Of a stretch of 64,000 nt of DNA, positions 13,719-40,073 are shown in pieces. Source of the DNA: Escherichia coli (GTDB lineage: Bacteria > Pseudomonadota > Gammaproteobacteria > Enterobacterales > Enterobacteriaceae). The number at the start of each line of letters is the position of its first letter. The first letter of the stretch is position 1. The DNA is taken from NCBI RefSeq assembly GCF_002854065.1, contig NZ_CP024147.1. One strand, given 5' to 3'. The notes beneath the pieces are model-generated. The model worked only from the letters and a program-made list of their open reading frames with translations. It made no database searches and was not told the DNA's origin. The translations under genes were made by a program, and so were the position numbers.

Positions 13719-13845
13719 TGAGACGATGACAAGCAGTAGTCTGACTTCTGAAAAGTACTCAGTGCGTCAACGCCTTGTCCGCCTACAGGCCTGAAAAACA
13801 TAGCGCATCAGGGGATTTTGCCCTGGTCACCAGTCTTATAGGACC

Positions 13846-13862
13846 CCGAAGCCTGGCTTCGG
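13846..13862. terminator. Perfect palindrome ccgaagcc-t-ggcttcgg between convergent ygaM and MocR-type gene
   Basis: 8-bp perfect inverted repeat; flanking U-runs weak. Confidence 0.4.
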
Positions 13863-13867
13863 AGTTA

Positions 13868-15202
13868 TTAATTTAAAGCACTGCGCAATTGCTGTGCTAC
13901 CTGTCGCGCCATACTTTCGCTAACGATATTCGTAAACGAGAGCAATAATCCTCCGTCCTCGCTTGAGCGGATACGCCAGTCGCTAAGTGCCTGTACGGCA
14001 AGACCAGCAGCATTGGCTTTATGCACGAATGTCACGTCATTACCTGCTAGTTTGATCACCATCTGGATACCGCCTTTTTGCGGCACAACCTGAAATCCCT
14101 GCTGCGTAAGTGCCTGCTCAATCCACTGCCGTCGCTGGGCATAATGCTGGCGCATTTTCTTCAGATGCCGCCAGAAATGCCCCTCACGGATGAAATCTGC
14201 CAGTGTGTTCTGCCACAGTACGGGTACAGCACATGGTTCCAGTGACGCCTGCTGCCGGAATTGCGAAATCTGCTCCACCGGCACCACCAGCCACGCACAG
14301 CGCAATGCAGGAAATAGCGCTTTGCTGAATGTTCCGGCATAAATCACCCGCTGCGGCGCGTCGAGACTTTTTAGTGCCGGTAACGGCTTACCGTGATAGC
14401 GAAACTCACTGTCGTAATCATCTTCAATAATCCATGCCTGACTACGCTCTGCCCATTCCAGTATCTGATACCTACGCGCTAAAGAGAGTGCCACACCCAG
14501 CGGGCTTTGGTGTGCCGGAGTAATCAGGGCAAAACGCGCATCAGGATAATTTTGTATTCCGCTTGTGACATCCAGTCCGTTGTCATCAACCGGCACAGGT
14601 AAAATTTCCAGACCGTGGCGAGTGACAATCGGGCGAATCAGCGGAAAGCCGGGATCTTCCATCCACATCCCGTCTCCCGGTTGCGCCAGAGCGTGCAGAA
14701 TTAAAGCCATTGAGGCCGCATAACCGTGAGTGATAAAGACCTGCTCTGGCTGACAATCAATCCCACGTGAAACGCGTAAATAATCAACAATAGCCTCGCG
14801 CAAGGCCGCCTCGCCGCAGACATCACCTAATGCCAAATCAAAACGCGTCTGGGTACGCAGACGGCGGCCCATCACCCGCGCCCACAATTCACGCGGAAAA
14901 AGATCAAGTGCAGGTAGCCCCATCTGAAAAGGCAGCGGCTGCTGACTTTCACCAGCAAAAGCCACGACATCCACAGCAGACTGTTGCGGATGTATCTGCT
15001 CACTGACAAAGGTACCCGCCTGTCCCCGCCTGACCAGCCATCCCTGCGCCACCAGCTCAGCATAAGCATTTTCGACAGTGGATCGAGAGACACCCAGCTC
15101 CTGCGACCAGGTACGGCTCGAGGGTAGCCTTGCGCCAGGTTTCAGTTCTCCTTGCTCGATAGCCGTTTTTAACTGACGGGCGATATCCTGATAACGTGGC
15201 AT
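13868..15202 (-). CDS. MocR/GabR-type transcriptional regulator (N-terminal GntR HTH fused to a large C-terminal domain of aminotransferase size)
   Basis: 444-aa ORF; N-terminus MPRYQDIARQLKTAIEQGELKPGARLPSSRTWSQELGVSRSTVENAYAELVAQGW is a GntR HTH followed by a ~350-aa domain; divergent from next gene. Confidence 0.8.
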   Translation of the reverse strand: MPRYQDIARQLKTAIEQGELKPGARLPSSRTWSQELGVSRSTVENAYAELVAQGWLVRRGQAGTFVSEQIHPQQSAVDVVAFAGESQQPLPFQMGLPALDLFPRELWARVMGRRLRTQTRFDLALGDVCGEAALREAIVDYLRVSRGIDCQPEQVFITHGYAASMALILHALAQPGDGMWMEDPGFPLIRPIVTRHGLEILPVPVDDNGLDVTSGIQNYPDARFALITPAHQSPLGVALSLARRYQILEWAERSQAWIIEDDYDSEFRYHGKPLPALKSLDAPQRVIYAGTFSKALFPALRCAWLVVPVEQISQFRQQASLEPCAVPVLWQNTLADFIREGHFWRHLKKMRQHYAQRRQWIEQALTQQGFQVVPQKGGIQMVIKLAGNDVTFVHKANAAGLAVQALSDWRIRSSEDGGLLLSFTNIVSESMARQVAQQLRSALN

Positions 15203-15289
15203 ATGGTCTGCTTTTTTAGGTAATTTATGGCTCTCTTTAGCAGTCCATTATAGTGCTACATTGCGGGCGTTAATAAGAGGAGAAACTGT

Positions 15290-15721
15290 ATGACTACATT
15301 ACGTCAGCCTTACTACGAACTTAGCCCGGCAGTGTATAACGCACTGGTGCAGGCCAAAACGGCACTGGAAAATAGCACGCTGGATACCACGTTGATGGAG
15401 TTAATTTATTTGCGCGTCTCGCAAATCAACGGCTGCGCATTTTGTCTGGAGATGCACAGCAAAGCATTGCGCAAATCCGGTGTGCCACAACACAAACTGG
15501 ACGCCCTGGCAGGCTGGCGCGTAAGCCATCATTTTGATGAACGCGAGCGAGCGGCGCTGGCATGGGCGGAATCAGTGACCGATATTGCCAGAACCCATGC
15601 GGAAGACGAGGTTTATCAGCCTTTGCTTGAGCATTTCAGCGCAGCAGAAATCAGCGATTTAACGTTTGCCATCGGGCTGATGAATTGTTTTAACCGTCTG
15701 GCCGTTTCCATGCGGATGTAA
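15290..15721 (+). CDS. Carboxymuconolactone decarboxylase / AhpD-like family protein
   Basis: 143-aa ORF with CxxCxxxH-type motif (GCAFCLEMH) typical of AhpD-core proteins; divergent from the MocR-type regulator. Confidence 0.75.
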   Translation: MTTLRQPYYELSPAVYNALVQAKTALENSTLDTTLMELIYLRVSQINGCAFCLEMHSKALRKSGVPQHKLDALAGWRVSHHFDERERAALAWAESVTDIARTHAEDEVYQPLLEHFSAAEISDLTFAIGLMNCFNRLAVSMRM

Positions 15722-15929
15722 TTTGCTGTTGCCGGGTATGCGCCCGGCAAAAAAACACAAAATCCCCTACCCCGTTGAGCCATTCACCGGTGGCGTAATC
15801 AATCTAAAATTCCCATATCTTGTGTGGTTGAATCTTTTTTCAACTACATCTAGTATCTCTGTATCAACAGAGAGACAACCCGACGCGTATCATCGCGCCG
15901 TATCTTCATTTTAAACGGAAATACGAATC

Positions 15930-23523: not shown

Positions 23524-24708
23524 ATGACTAAACCTAATCATGAGCTTAGCCCGGCGCTGATCGTGCTGATGTCTATCGCCACCGGTCTGGCGGTAGCCAG
23601 TAACTATTACGCCCAGCCATTGCTCGACACCATCGCGCGTAACTTTTCCCTTTCCGCCAGTTCGGCAGGCTTTATTGTTACCGCCGCGCAGTTGGGCTAT
23701 GCCGCAGGTCTACTGTTTCTTGTTCCCCTCGGTGATATGTTTGAACGCCGCCGCCTGATTGTCTCGATGACCTTACTGGCAGCGGGCGGTATGTTAATCA
23801 CTGCCAGCAGTCAGTCACTGGCGATGATGATCCTCGGTACGGCATTAACCGGTTTATTCTCAGTCGTGGCACAAATTCTGGTTCCGCTGGCAGCGACGCT
23901 GGCTTCACCGGATAAACGCGGCAAAGTGGTTGGCACCATTATGAGCGGTCTGCTGTTGGGGATATTGCTGGCACGAACCGTTGCCGGGTTACTGGCAAAC
24001 CTCGGCGGCTGGCGCACCGTCTTTTGGGTTGCCTCGGTGTTAATGGCTCTGATGGCGCTGGCATTATGGCGTGGTCTGCCACAAATGAAATCAGAAACCC
24101 ACCTCAACTACCCACAGTTGTTGGGTTCCGTTTTCAGCATGTTTATCAACGATAAGATCCTGCGCACCCGCGCGTTGCTGGGCTGCCTGACCTTTGCCAA
24201 CTTCAGCATTCTCTGGACCTCAATGGCCTTTTTGCTTGCCGCCCCACCTTTTAACTACAGCGATGGTGTCATTGGTCTGTTTGGGCTTGCGGGAGCTGCC
24301 GGAGCGTTGGGCGCTCGTCCGGCGGGCGGTTTTGCCGACAAGGGCAAATCGCACCACACAACAACTTTCGGTCTGCTTCTGCTGTTACTTTCATGGCTGG
24401 CAATCTGGTTTGGTCACACTTCCGTACTGGCGCTGATTATCGGCATCCTGGTGCTGGACCTCACCGTGCAGGGCGTGCATATCACTAACCAGACGGTAAT
24501 TTATCGAATACATCCTGATGCGCGTAATCGCCTGACCGCAGGTTACATGACCAGCTACTTTATTGGCGGTGCCGCCGGATCGCTAATTTCAGCCTCAGCC
24601 TGGCAACATGGCGGTTGGGCTGGCGTTTGTCTGGCTGGCGCGACGATTGCCCTGGTTAACTTACTGGTCTGGTGGCGAGGTTTTCATCGTCAGGAAGCCG
24701 CAAATTAA
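23524..24708 (+). CDS. ygaY: MFS transporter YgaY (intact here)
   Basis: 394-aa uninterrupted ORF with 12-TM-like hydrophobic pattern. Confidence 0.85.
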   Translation: MTKPNHELSPALIVLMSIATGLAVASNYYAQPLLDTIARNFSLSASSAGFIVTAAQLGYAAGLLFLVPLGDMFERRRLIVSMTLLAAGGMLITASSQSLAMMILGTALTGLFSVVAQILVPLAATLASPDKRGKVVGTIMSGLLLGILLARTVAGLLANLGGWRTVFWVASVLMALMALALWRGLPQMKSETHLNYPQLLGSVFSMFINDKILRTRALLGCLTFANFSILWTSMAFLLAAPPFNYSDGVIGLFGLAGAAGALGARPAGGFADKGKSHHTTTFGLLLLLLSWLAIWFGHTSVLALIIGILVLDLTVQGVHITNQTVIYRIHPDARNRLTAGYMTSYFIGGAAGSLISASAWQHGGWAGVCLAGATIALVNLLVWWRGFHRQEAAN

Positions 24709-24831
24709 GCAATCAGCAACCGTTTTCGTGGCTTTACACTTATAAGGGTGTTAAGAAGCCCATCAGTCTGATAAGGTTAAGATATTCATTCAGTCTATTT
24801 ATAATATTAACAATCGTTAAGCGTACACTCT

Positions 24832-25569
24832 ATGGAAAGCCCTACTCCACAGCCTGCTCCTGGTTCGGCGACCTTCATGGAAGGATGCAAAGACAGTTTA
24901 CCGATTGTTATTAGTTATATTCCGGTGGCCTTTGCGTTCGGTCTGAATGCGACCCGTCTGGGATTCTCTCCTCTCGAAAGCGTTTTTTTCTCCTGCATCA
25001 TTTATGCAGGCGCGAGCCAGTTCGTCATTACCGCGATGCTGGCAGCAGGGAGTAGTTTGTGGGTTGCTGCACTGACCGTCATGGCAATGGATGTTCGCCA
25101 TGTTTTGTATGGCCCGTCACTGCGTAGCCGTATTATTCAGCGTCTGCAAAAATCGAAAACCGCCCTATGGGCGTTTGGCCTGACGGATGAGGTTTTTGCC
25201 GCCGCCACCGCAAAACTGGTACGCAATAATCGCCGCTGGAGCGAGAACTGGATGATCGGCATTGCCTTCAGTTCATGGTCATCGTGGGTCTTTGGTACGG
25301 TAATAGGGGCATTCTCCGGCAGCGGCTTGCTGCAAGGTTATCCCGCCGTTGAAGCAGCATTAGGTTTTATGCTTCCGGCACTCTTTATGAGTTTCCTGCT
25401 CGCCTCTTTCCAGCGCAAACAATCTCTTTGCGTTACCGCAGCGTTAGTTGGTGCCCTTGCAGGCGTAACGCTATTTTCTATTCCCGTCGCCATTCTGGCA
25501 GGCATTGTCTGTGGCTGCCTCACTGCGTTAATCCAGGCATTCTGGCAAGGAGCGCCCGATGAGCTATGA
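24832..25569 (+). CDS. ygaZ: Branched-chain amino acid (valine) exporter subunit, AzlC family
   Basis: 245-aa membrane [34 protein letters not shown]... Confidence 0.93.
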
Positions 25570-29369: not shown

Positions 29370-29376
29370 GGTTGTC

Positions 29377-29401
29377 AAAGGGAGCTTCGGCTCCCTTTTT
29401 A
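29377..29401 (+). terminator. Rho-independent terminator after emrB
   Basis: aaagggagc-ttcg-gctccc followed by TTTTT. Confidence 0.8.
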
Positions 29402-29626
29402 TTTGCTCATTGTGCAAACGGTTGTTTTATCCACTCATTCGGTGTATCTTTTCGCCGCCCCAAACTCTTCCATTCACTATTAACCGGTTCTGAGCATTCG
29501 CTCAGGTTGTTAATTCTCTTTTTCCTTCGCCCTCGCTTTCGCGGGTGATACTCACATTTTCCGTTTAACCCCATAACTCGCACCCTCGCGGGCGTACGTT
29601 TATTACACACAAAATAATGGATTATT

Positions 29627-30334
29627 ATGAATACCCAACTTAAATACGGGAGAACCTGGCATTATCCTTTCTCCCCCGGCACCACCAGCGATGACCGCAT
29701 TAACGCCGATTACTGGCAGGATTTACAGGCCATCGCGCAACTGGTGCATACAGAAAAACTCGACGGCGAAAATAACTGCCTTAACCGCTACGGTGTGTTT
29801 GCCCGTTCCCATGCCGCGCCTACGCAGTCGGCATGGACCTATAAAATTCGCCAGCGTTGGCAACTGCTGAAAAACGATCTCGGCGACCTGGAGTTGTTTG
29901 GCGAAAATCTCTACGCCGTTCATTCCATTGAATACCGCGCGCTGGAACAGGACTTTTACCTGTTTGCCGTTCGCTGCCAGGATATGTGGCTGAGCTGGGA
30001 AGAGGTGCAGTTTTACGCCGCCCTGTTTGATTTCCCCTGCGTTCCCGAAATCTCCGGCCCGCAGCCGGGGAATGATGAAAAAAGCTGGCAACGTGATTTT
30101 CTGGCACTGACCAATGCGCGCGGCGCGTTCGATCCCTGGGATACACAAACCGGGCAACCCTGTACTCTGGAAGGCATTGTCAGCCGGAATCGTGATGCGT
30201 TTTCCGTCGCTGACTTTTCGCATAACGTCTTCAAGTATGTGCGCAAAAATCATGTCAAAACCACTGTGCACTGGAAACGACACTGGCAACGGGCGCGGAT
30301 GGCCCATGAGTTCGCTTATGGAGAACAGTCATGA
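29627..30334 (+). CDS. ATP-dependent RNA ligase-like nucleotidyltransferase (Rnl2-type catalytic domain only)
   Basis: 235-aa ORF with covalent nucleotidyltransferase motifs in canonical order and spacing: motif I EKLDGEN, motif [12 protein letters not shown], motif IV LEGIVSR, motif V FKYVRK. Confidence 0.75.
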
Positions 30335-31443
30335 TTTGGCAGCTTACCGACGATAAACGCTGGTCGACACTACGCCAGCGTTTCAGTTGGGTTGAGGAGA
30401 TGCATCACACGCCACAAGACCCGGAGCATCATGGTGAAGGTGACGTCGGCGTGCATACCGAAATGGTGCTTAACGCCCTTGTTACTCAGCCAGAATTCCA
30501 GCAACTCCCCGCTCAACAGCAGGAAGTTTTATGGGCGGCGGCGTTATTACATGATGTTGAAAAGCGCAGCACTACCGTGCAGGAAAACGGACGTATTCAG
30601 TCGCCGGGCCATGCTCGTCGGGGCGAACTGACGGCCCGGCTGATTTTGTGGCGCGATATCCCAACGCCGTTCGTGCTGCGCGAGCAAATCGTTGCGCTGG
30701 TGCGTCTGCATGGGTTACCGCTATGGTTACTGGAACGTCCGGAACCGGAGCGTTTGTTGCTCACGGCTGCAATGCGCATCGACACGCGTCTGCTCACTTT
30801 GCTTGCTCGTGCCGATCTGCTTGGTCGCCAAAGCCCGGATCAGCAATCAATGCTGGAACGCATCGATCTGTTCGAGCTGTTTTGCCAGGAGCAACAGTGT
30901 TGGGGAAAAGTGCGCTCGTTCGTGTCTGATTCCGCACGCTGGCATTACCTGACCCATGAGCAAAGTTCTCCTGATTTTGTTCCCTGGGAGGCTGAACCTT
31001 TTGAGGGCATTTTGCTGTGTGGCTTACCGGGTATGGGCAAAGATCGCTATATCAATGAACAGTGCCAGGGAATGGACGTTATCAGCCTTGATGATATGCG
31101 GCGGCGAATCAATGCCAATCCGGACGACAAAACCGCCACCGGGCGTATTGTGCAACAGGCAAAAGAAGAGGCACGCGTTTTTTTACGCCAGAAAAAGCCG
31201 TTCATCTGGAATGCAACGAACTTTACCCGCCAGCTTCGTAGCCAGCTCATCAGCCTGTTTACGGCTTACGGCGCACGAGTAAAAATAGTTTATCTTGAAG
31301 TGCCATGGGCGCAATGGAAGCAGCAAAATGCCAGACGCGAGTATGCAGTTCCTGAAGCGGTCGTGATGCGGATGGCCTCAAGGCTGGAAGTTCCTCAACC
31401 TGATGAAGCACATAGCGTGGAGTATCGGGTGATTGAAAGGTAA
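30331..31443 (+). CDS. Bifunctional HD-domain phosphoesterase / 5'-OH polynucleotide kinase (HD-Pnk architecture)
   Basis: 370-aa ORF; N-terminal HD metal-ligand pattern ([18 protein letters not shown], further His and Asp); C-terminal P-loop GLPGMGKD followed by [17 protein letters not shown] and [16 protein letters not shown], resembling the T4 Pnk kinase domain; start overlaps upstream stop (ATGA). Confidence 0.75.
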
Positions 31444-31448
31444 AAAAA

Positions 31449-31474
31449 CCGGGCGGTGGTGTCACCTGCCCGGC
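31449..31474. terminator. Bidirectional hairpin terminator between HD-Pnk gene and convergent luxS
   Basis: ccgggc-loop-gcccgg stem flanked by A-run upstream and T-rich run downstream. Confidence 0.6.
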
Positions 31475-31491
31475 TTCTTTTGTTCCACTGA

Positions 31492-32075: not shown

Positions 32076-32148
32076 GAAAGACGCGCATTTGTTATCATCA
32101 TCCCTGAATTCAGAGATGAAATTTTGGCCACTCACGAGTGGCCTTTTT
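32076..32148 (+). ncRNA. micA: MicA (SraD) small regulatory RNA
   Basis: Sequence gaaagacgcgcatttgttatcatcatccctgaattcagagatgaaattttggccactcacgagtggccttttt recognised as MicA, including the terminator hairpin and U-tail. Confidence 0.9.
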
Positions 32149-39819: not shown

Positions 39820-39980
39820 GGCATATCCTTACAACTTAAAAAAGCAAAAGGGCCGCAGATGCGACCCAAGTTTTGCTGATAAACAGATTTAATAGTCAAT
39901 GAGTGTGCAGAATGTTCCCGCAGGCCCAATTCGTTAGAGGATCGAGGTGAGAGTAATTTTTCACGCCAGTGCTGGCCTGT

Positions 39981-40030
39981 ACCCCTCCCCCTCCCCCTCA
40001 CCCTAACCCTCTCCCCAAAGGGGCGAGGGG
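39981..40030 (-). repeat. G-tract-rich structured element in recA-recX spacer (G-rich on the transcribed strand)
   Basis: Plus strand cccctccccctccccctcaccctaaccctctcccc followed by partner aaaggggcgagggga; mRNA sense carries six or more G3-G5 runs. Confidence 0.6.
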
Positions 40031-40073
40031 ACCGTCCGTGCACACATTATCTATTATCATCAATAACGAACGA

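Follow-up and report, generated by a model that had tools for sequence, protein, structure and literature searches.

Introduction

Enzymes of the HD-Pnk family have been studied biochemically in Runella slithyformis and Deinococcus radiodurans. The Runella enzyme is a bifunctional end healer that joins an HD phosphoesterase at its N terminus to a 5'-OH kinase at its C terminus, and its gene is preceded by a ligase open reading frame (ORF) whose 3' end overlaps the HD-Pnk start (PMC6097658). The Runella ligase adenylylates itself, and sealed none of the DNA or RNA substrates tried (PMC6097658). In D. radiodurans, DR_B0098 phosphorylates a 5'-OH DNA oligonucleotide, and the ligase DR_B0100 (LigB) forms an AMP adduct that needs K40 and sealed nothing tested. 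Escherichia coli, for its part, is usually regarded as lacking a 5'-OH polynucleotide kinase, and this assumed lack has served as a purity control in one paper (PMC1997131). Here, we analysed a 64,000-nucleotide stretch of an E. coli chromosome (contig NZ_CP024147.1, hereafter the window) and focused on two adjacent genes at positions 29627–31443. A previous reading of the letters alone (the original prediction) had recognised in the second gene an HD phosphoesterase fused to a T4-Pnk-like kinase domain and had likened it to HD-Pnk enzymes characterised in other bacteria, a family that is indeed already published. We propose, with a probability of roughly 80%, that the two genes form a translationally coupled operon for nucleic-acid end repair in which the predicted HD-Pnk end healer is encoded second.

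The HD-Pnk gene

In RefSeq, the 370-amino-acid product of the second gene is simply labelled 'ATP-binding protein', at the same coordinates, in E. coli strain 100416, which is 100% identical over the stretch. All the elements on which the original prediction was built could be located in the protein: the HD metal-ligand pattern (HH at 33–34, H42, H74-D75, H94, H127, D162), the P-loop GLPGMGKD (residues 231–238, nt 31021–31044) and the T4 Pnk-like blocks (ISLDDMRRR at 251–259, WNATNFTR at 293–300 and a 16-residue block at 321–336). Homologues of the protein are numerous (2018 word-indexed; 551 clusters at 50% identity, E ≤ 1e-30). Among 142 diverse members, taken as representatives from clusters at 50% identity, the HD residues H34, H42, H74, D75, H94, H127 and D162 and the kinase residues K237, D254, R257, R303 and R336 are each 96 to 100% conserved. 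The ratio of nonsynonymous to synonymous substitution rates (dN/dS) is 0.15 against the allele of strain UTI89, both genes of the pair being under purifying selection, and the AF2 model of the protein has a predicted local distance difference test (pLDDT) score of 92.7 and a predicted template modelling (pTM) score of 0.92. Given the AAA_33 match described below, the many homologues, the conservation of the catalytic residues and the dN/dS value, the motif matches are far beyond a chance pattern.

The N-terminal half is an HD-superfamily phosphoesterase domain with His and Asp metal ligands (Table 1), in which H34, K78 and R166 are also conserved. The Pfam HD match obtained with the single sequence is weak (E = 0.075), and a precomputed match to PF01966 is present in many of the homologues. 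Using hhalign, residues 11–169 of the family profile were aligned with the HD domain of E. coli Cca (residues 200–351, E = 1.6e-4), with 26% identity over 145 columns and with the H..H, HD, GH, H and D..GR motifs in register. A fold search placed HD hydrolases among the closest solved structures, and the HD domain bears its nearest likeness to the one in the tRNA CCA enzyme. Its H-HD-H-H-D ligands are of the type seen in HD enzymes with a two-metal centre, and the HD domain of Cca has Ni-dependent 2',3'-cyclic phosphodiesterase and phosphatase activities.

The C-terminal half is a P-loop domain of the T4 Pnk/Pnkp 5'-OH polynucleotide kinase type. Pfam assigns residues 227–355 to AAA_33 (E = 2e-31). 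In the PDB, the Clostridium thermocellum Pnkp kinase domain (4gp6) is the best match by sequence, T4 Pnk also being listed, and the fold search ranks polynucleotide and tRNA kinases first. The phmmer alignment equates K237, D238, D254, R257 and N294 with Lys21, Ser22, Asp38, Arg41 and Asp78 of the C. thermocellum enzyme. The roles of these residues, with D254 as general base and the arginines binding phosphates and substrate, we take to be those known from the structures of the Shuman laboratory. The original prediction had named a best match in an unrelated P-loop family as one outcome that would count against it; because Pnkp is the best PDB match and T4 Pnk is listed as well, the domain does not fall in the adenylate, shikimate or gluconate kinase families.

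The same prediction had pointed to an Asp in place of the usual P-loop Ser/Thr. This is a real feature of the family and not a local defect, since Asp occupies the position in 110 of the 142 diverse members and is invariant in 22 close homologues. It was also followed in 81 loci, consisting of UTI89 and of 80 genomes (80 of 439 matches kept) retrieved through the HD-Pnk protein: 79 of them have GKD, including Emticicia and Dyadobacter, which belong to the same family as Runella, and the remaining two have GKN. Moreover, position 238 (nt 31042–31044) covaries with the Walker-B-like position 294 (nt 31210–31212) among the 142 members: 107 sequences combine Asp238 with Asn294, 19 combine Ser/Thr238 with Asp294, and exceptions are few (raw counts that ignore kinship). 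The D. radiodurans HD-Pnk, which is active as a kinase, has a canonical GKS P-loop together with WDAT. In the family, GKD is a hallmark that goes hand in hand with Asn at the Walker-B-like position. From this covariation we infer that the carboxylate has been relocated rather than lost, one being kept beside the Mg-nucleoside triphosphate (NTP) site and having probably shifted into the P-loop in most members.

These data also bear on another view of the protein, in which the C-terminal domain would be a degenerate ATP-binding module or an AAA_33-type kinase of small molecules or nucleotides, and the HD domain a nucleotide or (p)ppGpp-type phosphohydrolase. The generic AAA_33 assignment by Pfam, the RefSeq name and the lack of the usual P-loop Ser/Thr would all fit such a protein, but GKD is invariant in the subfamily, the substrate-side residues D254, R257, R303 and R336 are 96 to 99% conserved, and the pairing of positions 238 and 294 is what a moved carboxylate would leave. 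The top fold matches to polynucleotide and tRNA kinases, the strict linkage to the ligase gene and the purifying selection further argue against this view, which we consider improbable.

The partner ligase and the two-gene cassette

The original prediction missed the gene lying immediately upstream, whose 235-amino-acid product matches the RNA ligase family PF09414 (E = 4.8e-28). It possesses motifs I, III, IV and V of the covalent nucleotidyltransferases, including the motif I lysine (K44-LDG), and all four motifs are invariant. The fold search identified RNA ligases of the Rnl5, Rnl2 and Rnl3 types as the nearest structures; PDB matches to mollusc hemocyanin were discarded as summed weak matches to a repeated domain. 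Neither the C-terminal accessory domain of Rnl2 nor the N-terminal one of Rnl5 is present, the protein being the adenylyltransferase domain alone. As judged from its motifs, the upstream protein would act like the Rnl enzymes at step 1, and it belongs to neither Rnl2 nor Rnl5.

The two genes overlap by 4 nt (ATGA), and a GGAG stands upstream of the HD-Pnk start. A ligase homologue is found directly upstream of the HD-Pnk gene, on the same strand, in 81 of the 81 loci, which come from Enterobacterales and Bacteroidota. HD-Pnk is one half of a two-gene ligase and HD-Pnk cassette.

To place the cassette among the described systems, D. radiodurans DR_B0098 served as the direct comparison, whereas the identity between the E. 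coli and Runella proteins was estimated through relatives of Runella. DR_B0098 shares 29% identity with the E. coli protein over residues 5–369 (E = 8e-34), and DR_B0100 is 35% identical to the E. coli ligase, K44 aligning with K40. The Spirosomaceae Emticicia and Dyadobacter, which are of the Runella family, have HD-Pnk proteins 51 to 52% identical to that of E. coli, with the same GKD P-loop. None of the 80 genomes is a Runella, and a protein search started from Emticicia gave Spirosoma and Larkinella among its matches, with no entry under the name Runella. The arrangement that the original prediction had described, with HD first and Pnk last, is thus borne out by the alignment with the Cca HD domain, by the full-length homology with DR_B0098 and by an operon of the Runella type.

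Table 1. Positions of the cassette genes, their domains and the associated regulatory candidates. Coordinates refer to the window, except in the last row, where they refer to the individual loci.
Feature	Position	Strand	Details
HD-Pnk gene, 370 aa, predicted bifunctional 2',3'-phosphoesterase and 5'-OH polynucleotide kinase	30331..31443	+	ATG at 30331, TAA stop ending at 31443; ORF, profile, homology, fold
HD phosphoesterase domain, about residues 11–210	30361..30960	+	putative metal ligands H42, H74, D75, H94, H127, D162
P-loop polynucleotide-kinase domain, about residues 222–370	30994..31440	+	P-loop G231-LPGMGK237-D238, D254, R257, R303, R336, N294
Stand-alone ATP-dependent RNA-ligase-type adenylyltransferase gene, 235 aa	29627..30334	+	motif I TEK44LDGEN
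Intrinsic-terminator-like hairpin after the emrB stop, upstream insert edge	29377..29398	+	terminator scan
Bidirectional terminator-like hairpin (A-run, GC-rich stem, T-run)	31442..31483	.	read from sequence; scan match 31455–31470
Conserved leader block, candidate cis-regulatory element	29441..29512	+	alignment across genera
Hairpin H1, CUGAGC-loop-GCUCAG then U-rich tail	29489..29506	+	within leader block
ATGTAAT example regions	L056 5210–5306; L022 5195–5303; L038 5210–5302

Predicted mechanism and natural substrate

In the mechanism that we propose, the N-terminal HD domain, through a transition-metal centre held by the H-HD-H-H-D residues, would remove 2',3'-cyclic, 3'- or 2'-phosphates and leave a 3'-OH, and the C-terminal P-loop domain would move the gamma-phosphate of an NTP onto the 5'-OH end. 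D254 would act as the general base, K237, R257, R303 and R336 would hold the phosphates and the substrate, and D238 would provide the Mg-binding carboxylate that canonical relatives have at the Walker-B-like position, here N294. The ligase, adenylylated on K44, would be expected to seal the healed 3'-OH/5'-PO4 ends. Kinase activity has been shown in Deinococcus and Runella, phosphoesterase activity in Runella and ligase adenylylation in both, and by analogy with these homologues the E. coli proteins should have the same activities.

Several points weigh against this interpretation. The P-loop is non-canonical, and a simple sigma-70 scan upstream of the cassette picked up no promoter on the + strand. 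In crude assays, Deinococcus mutants in the HD motif were no lower in 3'-phosphatase activity. The ligases of Runella (PMC6097658) and Deinococcus, homologues of the E. coli one, self-adenylylate, yet they failed on every DNA or RNA substrate tried, which leaves sealing a merely predicted step across the family. Finally, as the Deinococcus operon is tied to DNA-damage resistance, RNA is not the sole candidate substrate.

The gene neighbourhoods provide information on this last point. An RtcB-family gene lies within 6 kb of the pair in 28 of the 80 genomes, 12 of which also have a PrfH gene, and these genes are usually directly upstream of the ligase and HD-Pnk genes, on the same strand. In Serratia oryzae (locus L040, 3477–7113), rtcB, prfH, the ligase gene and the HD-Pnk gene form a single co-directional run. 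RtcB2-PrfH acts in the rescue and repair of ribosomes after cleavage by colicin E3 (PMC9304027, PMC9223846), and we found no description of the linkage of rtcB or prfH to the pair in the literature searched. Linkage of this kind was also noted in L015, L036, L060, L074 and others, and has the look of a four-gene operon for RNA and ribosome repair. In the window, no rtcB or prfH gene stands beside the cassette, which is alone. Three observations, namely the neighbouring RtcB and PrfH genes, a partner folded like an RNA ligase and an HD domain resembling that of Cca, make RNA (tRNA or rRNA cleaved by ribotoxins or stress nucleases) seem a more likely natural substrate than DNA.

The same enzymes could instead be devoted to DNA strand-break repair, acting on the 3'-phosphate/5'-OH DNA ends that follow oxidative or radiation damage, a role already proposed for the Deinococcus operon. 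This explanation overlaps in part with the one that we favour, from which it differs by the substrate alone, and it draws on the radiation-induced DR_B0100–DR_B0098 operon, which has been tied to resistance against both ionising radiation and mitomycin C, and on the phosphorylation of a DNA oligonucleotide by DR_B0098. The Runella HD-Pnk, in work by Munir and Shuman in J Bacteriol in 2017, reportedly acts on both DNA and RNA ends. However, the neighbours RtcB (28/80 genomes) and PrfH (12/80) are RNA and ribosome repair factors, the ligase fold is nearest to the Rnl5, Rnl2 and Rnl3 RNA ligases, the tRNA CCA enzyme offers the closest parallel to the HD domain, and no LexA-type box was seen in the leader, which was inspected by eye only. 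We thus regard DNA repair as a serious but unlikely alternative to RNA repair.

Genomic setting and distribution of the cassette

The window covers the emrR-emrAB/luxS/gshA region of the E. coli chromosome. A comparison by blastn revealed that the cassette is a 2.1-kb insert (29371–31486) between emrB and luxS, absent from K-12 MG1655, whose sequence is 98.7% identical up to 29370 and 99.4% identical from 31487 onward, and whose emrB-luxS spacer is only 63 bp at the insert site. Both edges of the insert are marked by hairpins (Table 1). The upstream one has a counterpart 3' of emrB in most of the other Enterobacteriaceae aligned, and its position after emrB implies that the cassette has its own promoter; the downstream one is common to the HD-Pnk gene and to the convergent luxS. 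The original prediction had not counted such enzymes in the E. coli core, and the cassette is in fact carried by 999 of 5426 complete E. coli genomes, always on the chromosome, UTI89 being among the carriers and K-12 being without it. In the carrier genomes the pair is annotated as 'RNA ligase family protein' and 'ATP-binding protein'.

The pair lies between emrB and luxS in Klebsiella spallanzanii, an Enterobacter, Kosakonia and Citrobacter amalonaticus. In Phytobacter and Superficieibacter it is preceded by emrB, and the contig from Salmonella is too short to reveal its neighbours. This synteny across genera suggests that the cassette is an old resident of the emrB-luxS site in Enterobacteriaceae, lost by many E. 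coli lineages. Between E. coli and Bacteroidota or distant Enterobacterales, identity is 53 to 70% for the ligase and 49 to 63% for HD-Pnk, which is high for such distant taxa and suggests that the pair may have been exchanged horizontally between them.

The allele of the window is rare, only 2 of the 999 carriers having it at 99% identity or more, and most being at 95 to 96%. Its HD-Pnk is WP_032281481, that of UTI89 being WP_000638132, and the synonymous divergence (dS) between the two alleles is about 0.13; the flanking genes are 97.8 to 99.4% identical to UTI89 and 98.7 to 99.4% to K-12. Such values would fit a polymorphism of long standing better than a transfer made recently from the common allele.

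A mobile-element origin was considered and discarded. Around the insert, no flanking repeats or mobile-element features were found beyond short repeats at chance level, and there are no E. coli plasmid copies, the matches to HD-Pnk in the plasmid collection being megaplasmids or one mislabelled chromosome. In the phage collection, the record LR756500.1, an unannotated 462-kb uncultured phage, encodes at 24519–25559 (H21) a protein 35% identical over 94% of the query. No other full-length homologue was found in that collection, Bacillus phages matching the kinase domain only.

Accessory and patchy genes common to distant phyla at 50 to 58% identity call to mind a conflict system, and the pair might be viewed as a toxin or as an effector of anti-phage defence, akin to the zeta toxins or to the kinases of abortive infection. 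Identity with a PADLOC defence system was rejected, as neither protein matches any family at E ≤ 0.01. The locus has neither an antitoxin-like partner nor mobile-element hallmarks, the emrB-luxS synteny is stable across Enterobacteriaceae genera, the partner gene is a ligase, and phage homologues are rare, the 462-kb record being the one full-length match. We therefore hold a conflict system to be highly improbable and retain end repair as the predicted function of the pair.

The leader of the ligase gene

The ligase gene is preceded by a leader of 257 nt that contains a block conserved across genera (Table 1). At its core, CCGGTTCTGAGC-loop-GCTCAGG hardly varies in Escherichia, Klebsiella, Enterobacter, Phytobacter, Salmonella, Kosakonia and Citrobacter, and the 5' part of the block and the remaining spacer are more variable. 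Hairpin H1, within the block, has a loop of 4 to 8 nt and 7 pairs in RNAalifold; its stem is preserved in Superficieibacter, where both partners differ at three pairs, and in Kosakonia, where one pair is G-U. The H1 block could be an attenuator or another cis-regulatory RNA. Rfam, Pedo-repair included, returned no match for the leader of the window, nor for the Bacteroidota and Xenorhabdus leaders, and no LexA or sigma-54 box was seen in the leader by eye. A leader peptide was ruled out on inspection by eye, since the 13-codon GTG ORF that could be read in E. coli and Klebsiella lacks a start codon in both Enterobacter and Phytobacter.

A different element was observed outside these genera. 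In 38 of 78 loci, the 250 nt preceding the ligase gene contain the 7-mer ATGTAAT (TTGTAAT in one clade), whose density is 2.0 per kb there versus 0.07 per kb elsewhere in the same loci (27-fold enrichment). The 7-mer spans several Bacteroidota families and Xenorhabdus, is located 50 to 200 nt before the ligase start, is followed by clade-specific hairpins, and does not occur in loci having rtcB or prfH directly upstream. In some loci ATGTAAT is complementary to an ATTACAA just before the start codon, the match being a perfect 10 bp in three Cytophagales-type loci (L002, L003, L008), and 7 of 44 ligase genes have an ATTACA no more than 30 nt from their start, versus 4 of 421 other ORFs. This complementarity is absent or mismatched in most clades, and a pairing of ATGTAAT with the ligase translation start is suggestive only.

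Implications

A wider picture may be drawn, in which the cassette would be a self-contained, horizontally exchanged RNA-break repair module shielding about one fifth of E. coli strains from ribotoxins such as colicins, contact-dependent or type VI secretion system RNases and phage-triggered anticodon nucleases. The ligase would be restricted to one particular natural substrate, such as a tRNA cut in its anticodon loop or the rRNA in the ribosome, and this would explain why its homologues failed on model substrates. The kinase would represent a mechanistically distinct Pnk clade, with the Mg carboxylate in the P-loop (GKD/WNAT), and the structured leader, H1 in Enterobacteriaceae and ATGTAAT elsewhere, would govern expression in response to RNA damage. 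We offer this picture tentatively, as we think it unlikely to hold as a whole.

K-12 does conform to the view that E. coli lacks a polynucleotide kinase. In 999 of the 5426 genomes, however, including that of the uropathogenic model strain UTI89, an intact predicted HD-Pnk is encoded together with its ligase. This matters for the reading of 5'-OH and 2',3'-cyclic-phosphate RNA ends in strains other than K-12, and for strain differences in tolerance to RNase toxins. E. coli also offers a genetically tractable host in which to ask what the partner ligase seals, a question raised by the Runella and Deinococcus systems. Finally, the annotation could gain in precision, because the gene is now only an 'ATP-binding protein'.

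Other features of the window

Compared with K-12, the window has a second 2.1-kb insert at 13721–15814, between ygaM and nrdH. By eye, it contains a 444-amino-acid ORF on the minus strand (13868–15202) with the look of a GntR/MocR-type pyridoxal-phosphate-dependent regulator, and a divergent 143-amino-acid ORF (15290–15721) with that of a carboxymuconolactone-decarboxylase/AhpD-type protein. The recX-recA spacer includes about 200 bp (39868–40069) that are absent from K-12, with a GC-rich repeat-like stretch (CCCTCCCCCTCCCCCTCACCCTAACCCTCTCCCCAAAGGGGCGAGGGGAC); they probably belong to the small repeat elements found between genes in E. coli. The MicA small RNA lies at 32076–32147 between luxS and gshA, as in K-12 (Rfam RF00078, 83.9 bits).

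Comparison with known systems

The logic of healing the 3' end, phosphorylating the 5' end and ligating is shared with T4 Pnkp and its ligases Rnl1/Rnl2 and with C. thermocellum Pnkp-Hen1. The modules differ: 3' healing is performed by a HAD/DxDxT phosphatase in T4 and by a calcineurin-type phosphoesterase in C. thermocellum, both C-terminal to the kinase, whereas in the E. coli protein the predicted 3' end-healing module is an HD domain N-terminal to it. The E. coli ligase is a separate protein of 235 amino acids with no extra domain, unlike the single polypeptide of the Pnkp-Hen1 system. The corresponding model, bacter_Pnkp TIGR04075, describes a polypeptide of about 850 amino acids combining kinase, calcineurin-type phosphoesterase and ligase, with a Hen1 partner; HD-Pnk reaches 30.8 bits against a cutoff of 750, through the kinase part only (model positions 11–137), and no Hen1 methyltransferase gene is found in the neighbourhood of the E. 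coli pair.

RtcB and RtcB2-PrfH target the same damage, namely the 2',3'-cyclic-phosphate/5'-OH breaks made by ribotoxins (PMC9304027, PMC9223846). Their chemistry is unrelated to that of the cassette, as RtcB joins 3'-phosphate and 5'-OH ends directly with GTP and requires no end healing. E. coli Cca has its HD motifs in common with the N-terminal half of HD-Pnk, but it carries a nucleotidyltransferase head domain that HD-Pnk lacks, the HD domain of the latter being fused to a kinase instead. Accordingly, the multifunctional CCA-adding enzyme model NF008137 gives 21.7 bits against a cutoff of 451, over positions 202–269 only.

The closest systems are those of Deinococcus and Runella. The D. 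radiodurans operon (DR_B0100–DR_B0099–DR_B0098) has the ligase first and HD-Pnk last, as in E. coli, but with the macro/PARG-type DR_B0099 between them where the E. coli genes overlap; its HD-Pnk has a GKS P-loop with WDAT instead of GKD with WNAT, and it is a radiation-induced operon of a megaplasmid whereas the E. coli cassette is chromosomal. In Runella, as judged from the published description, the ligase gene overlaps the HD-Pnk gene in the same order as in the E. coli pair, with its ATGA overlap. The Runella cluster also includes Tpt1 and an MTase-HIT gene, neither of which is present in the E. coli locus or in the Emticicia loci. Taken together, the architecture, the conserved residues, the full-length homology and the operon context make the E. 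coli protein, on sequence grounds, a member of the known HD-Pnk family and not a new kind of system; the family is extended to an important organism, with its overall picture unchanged.

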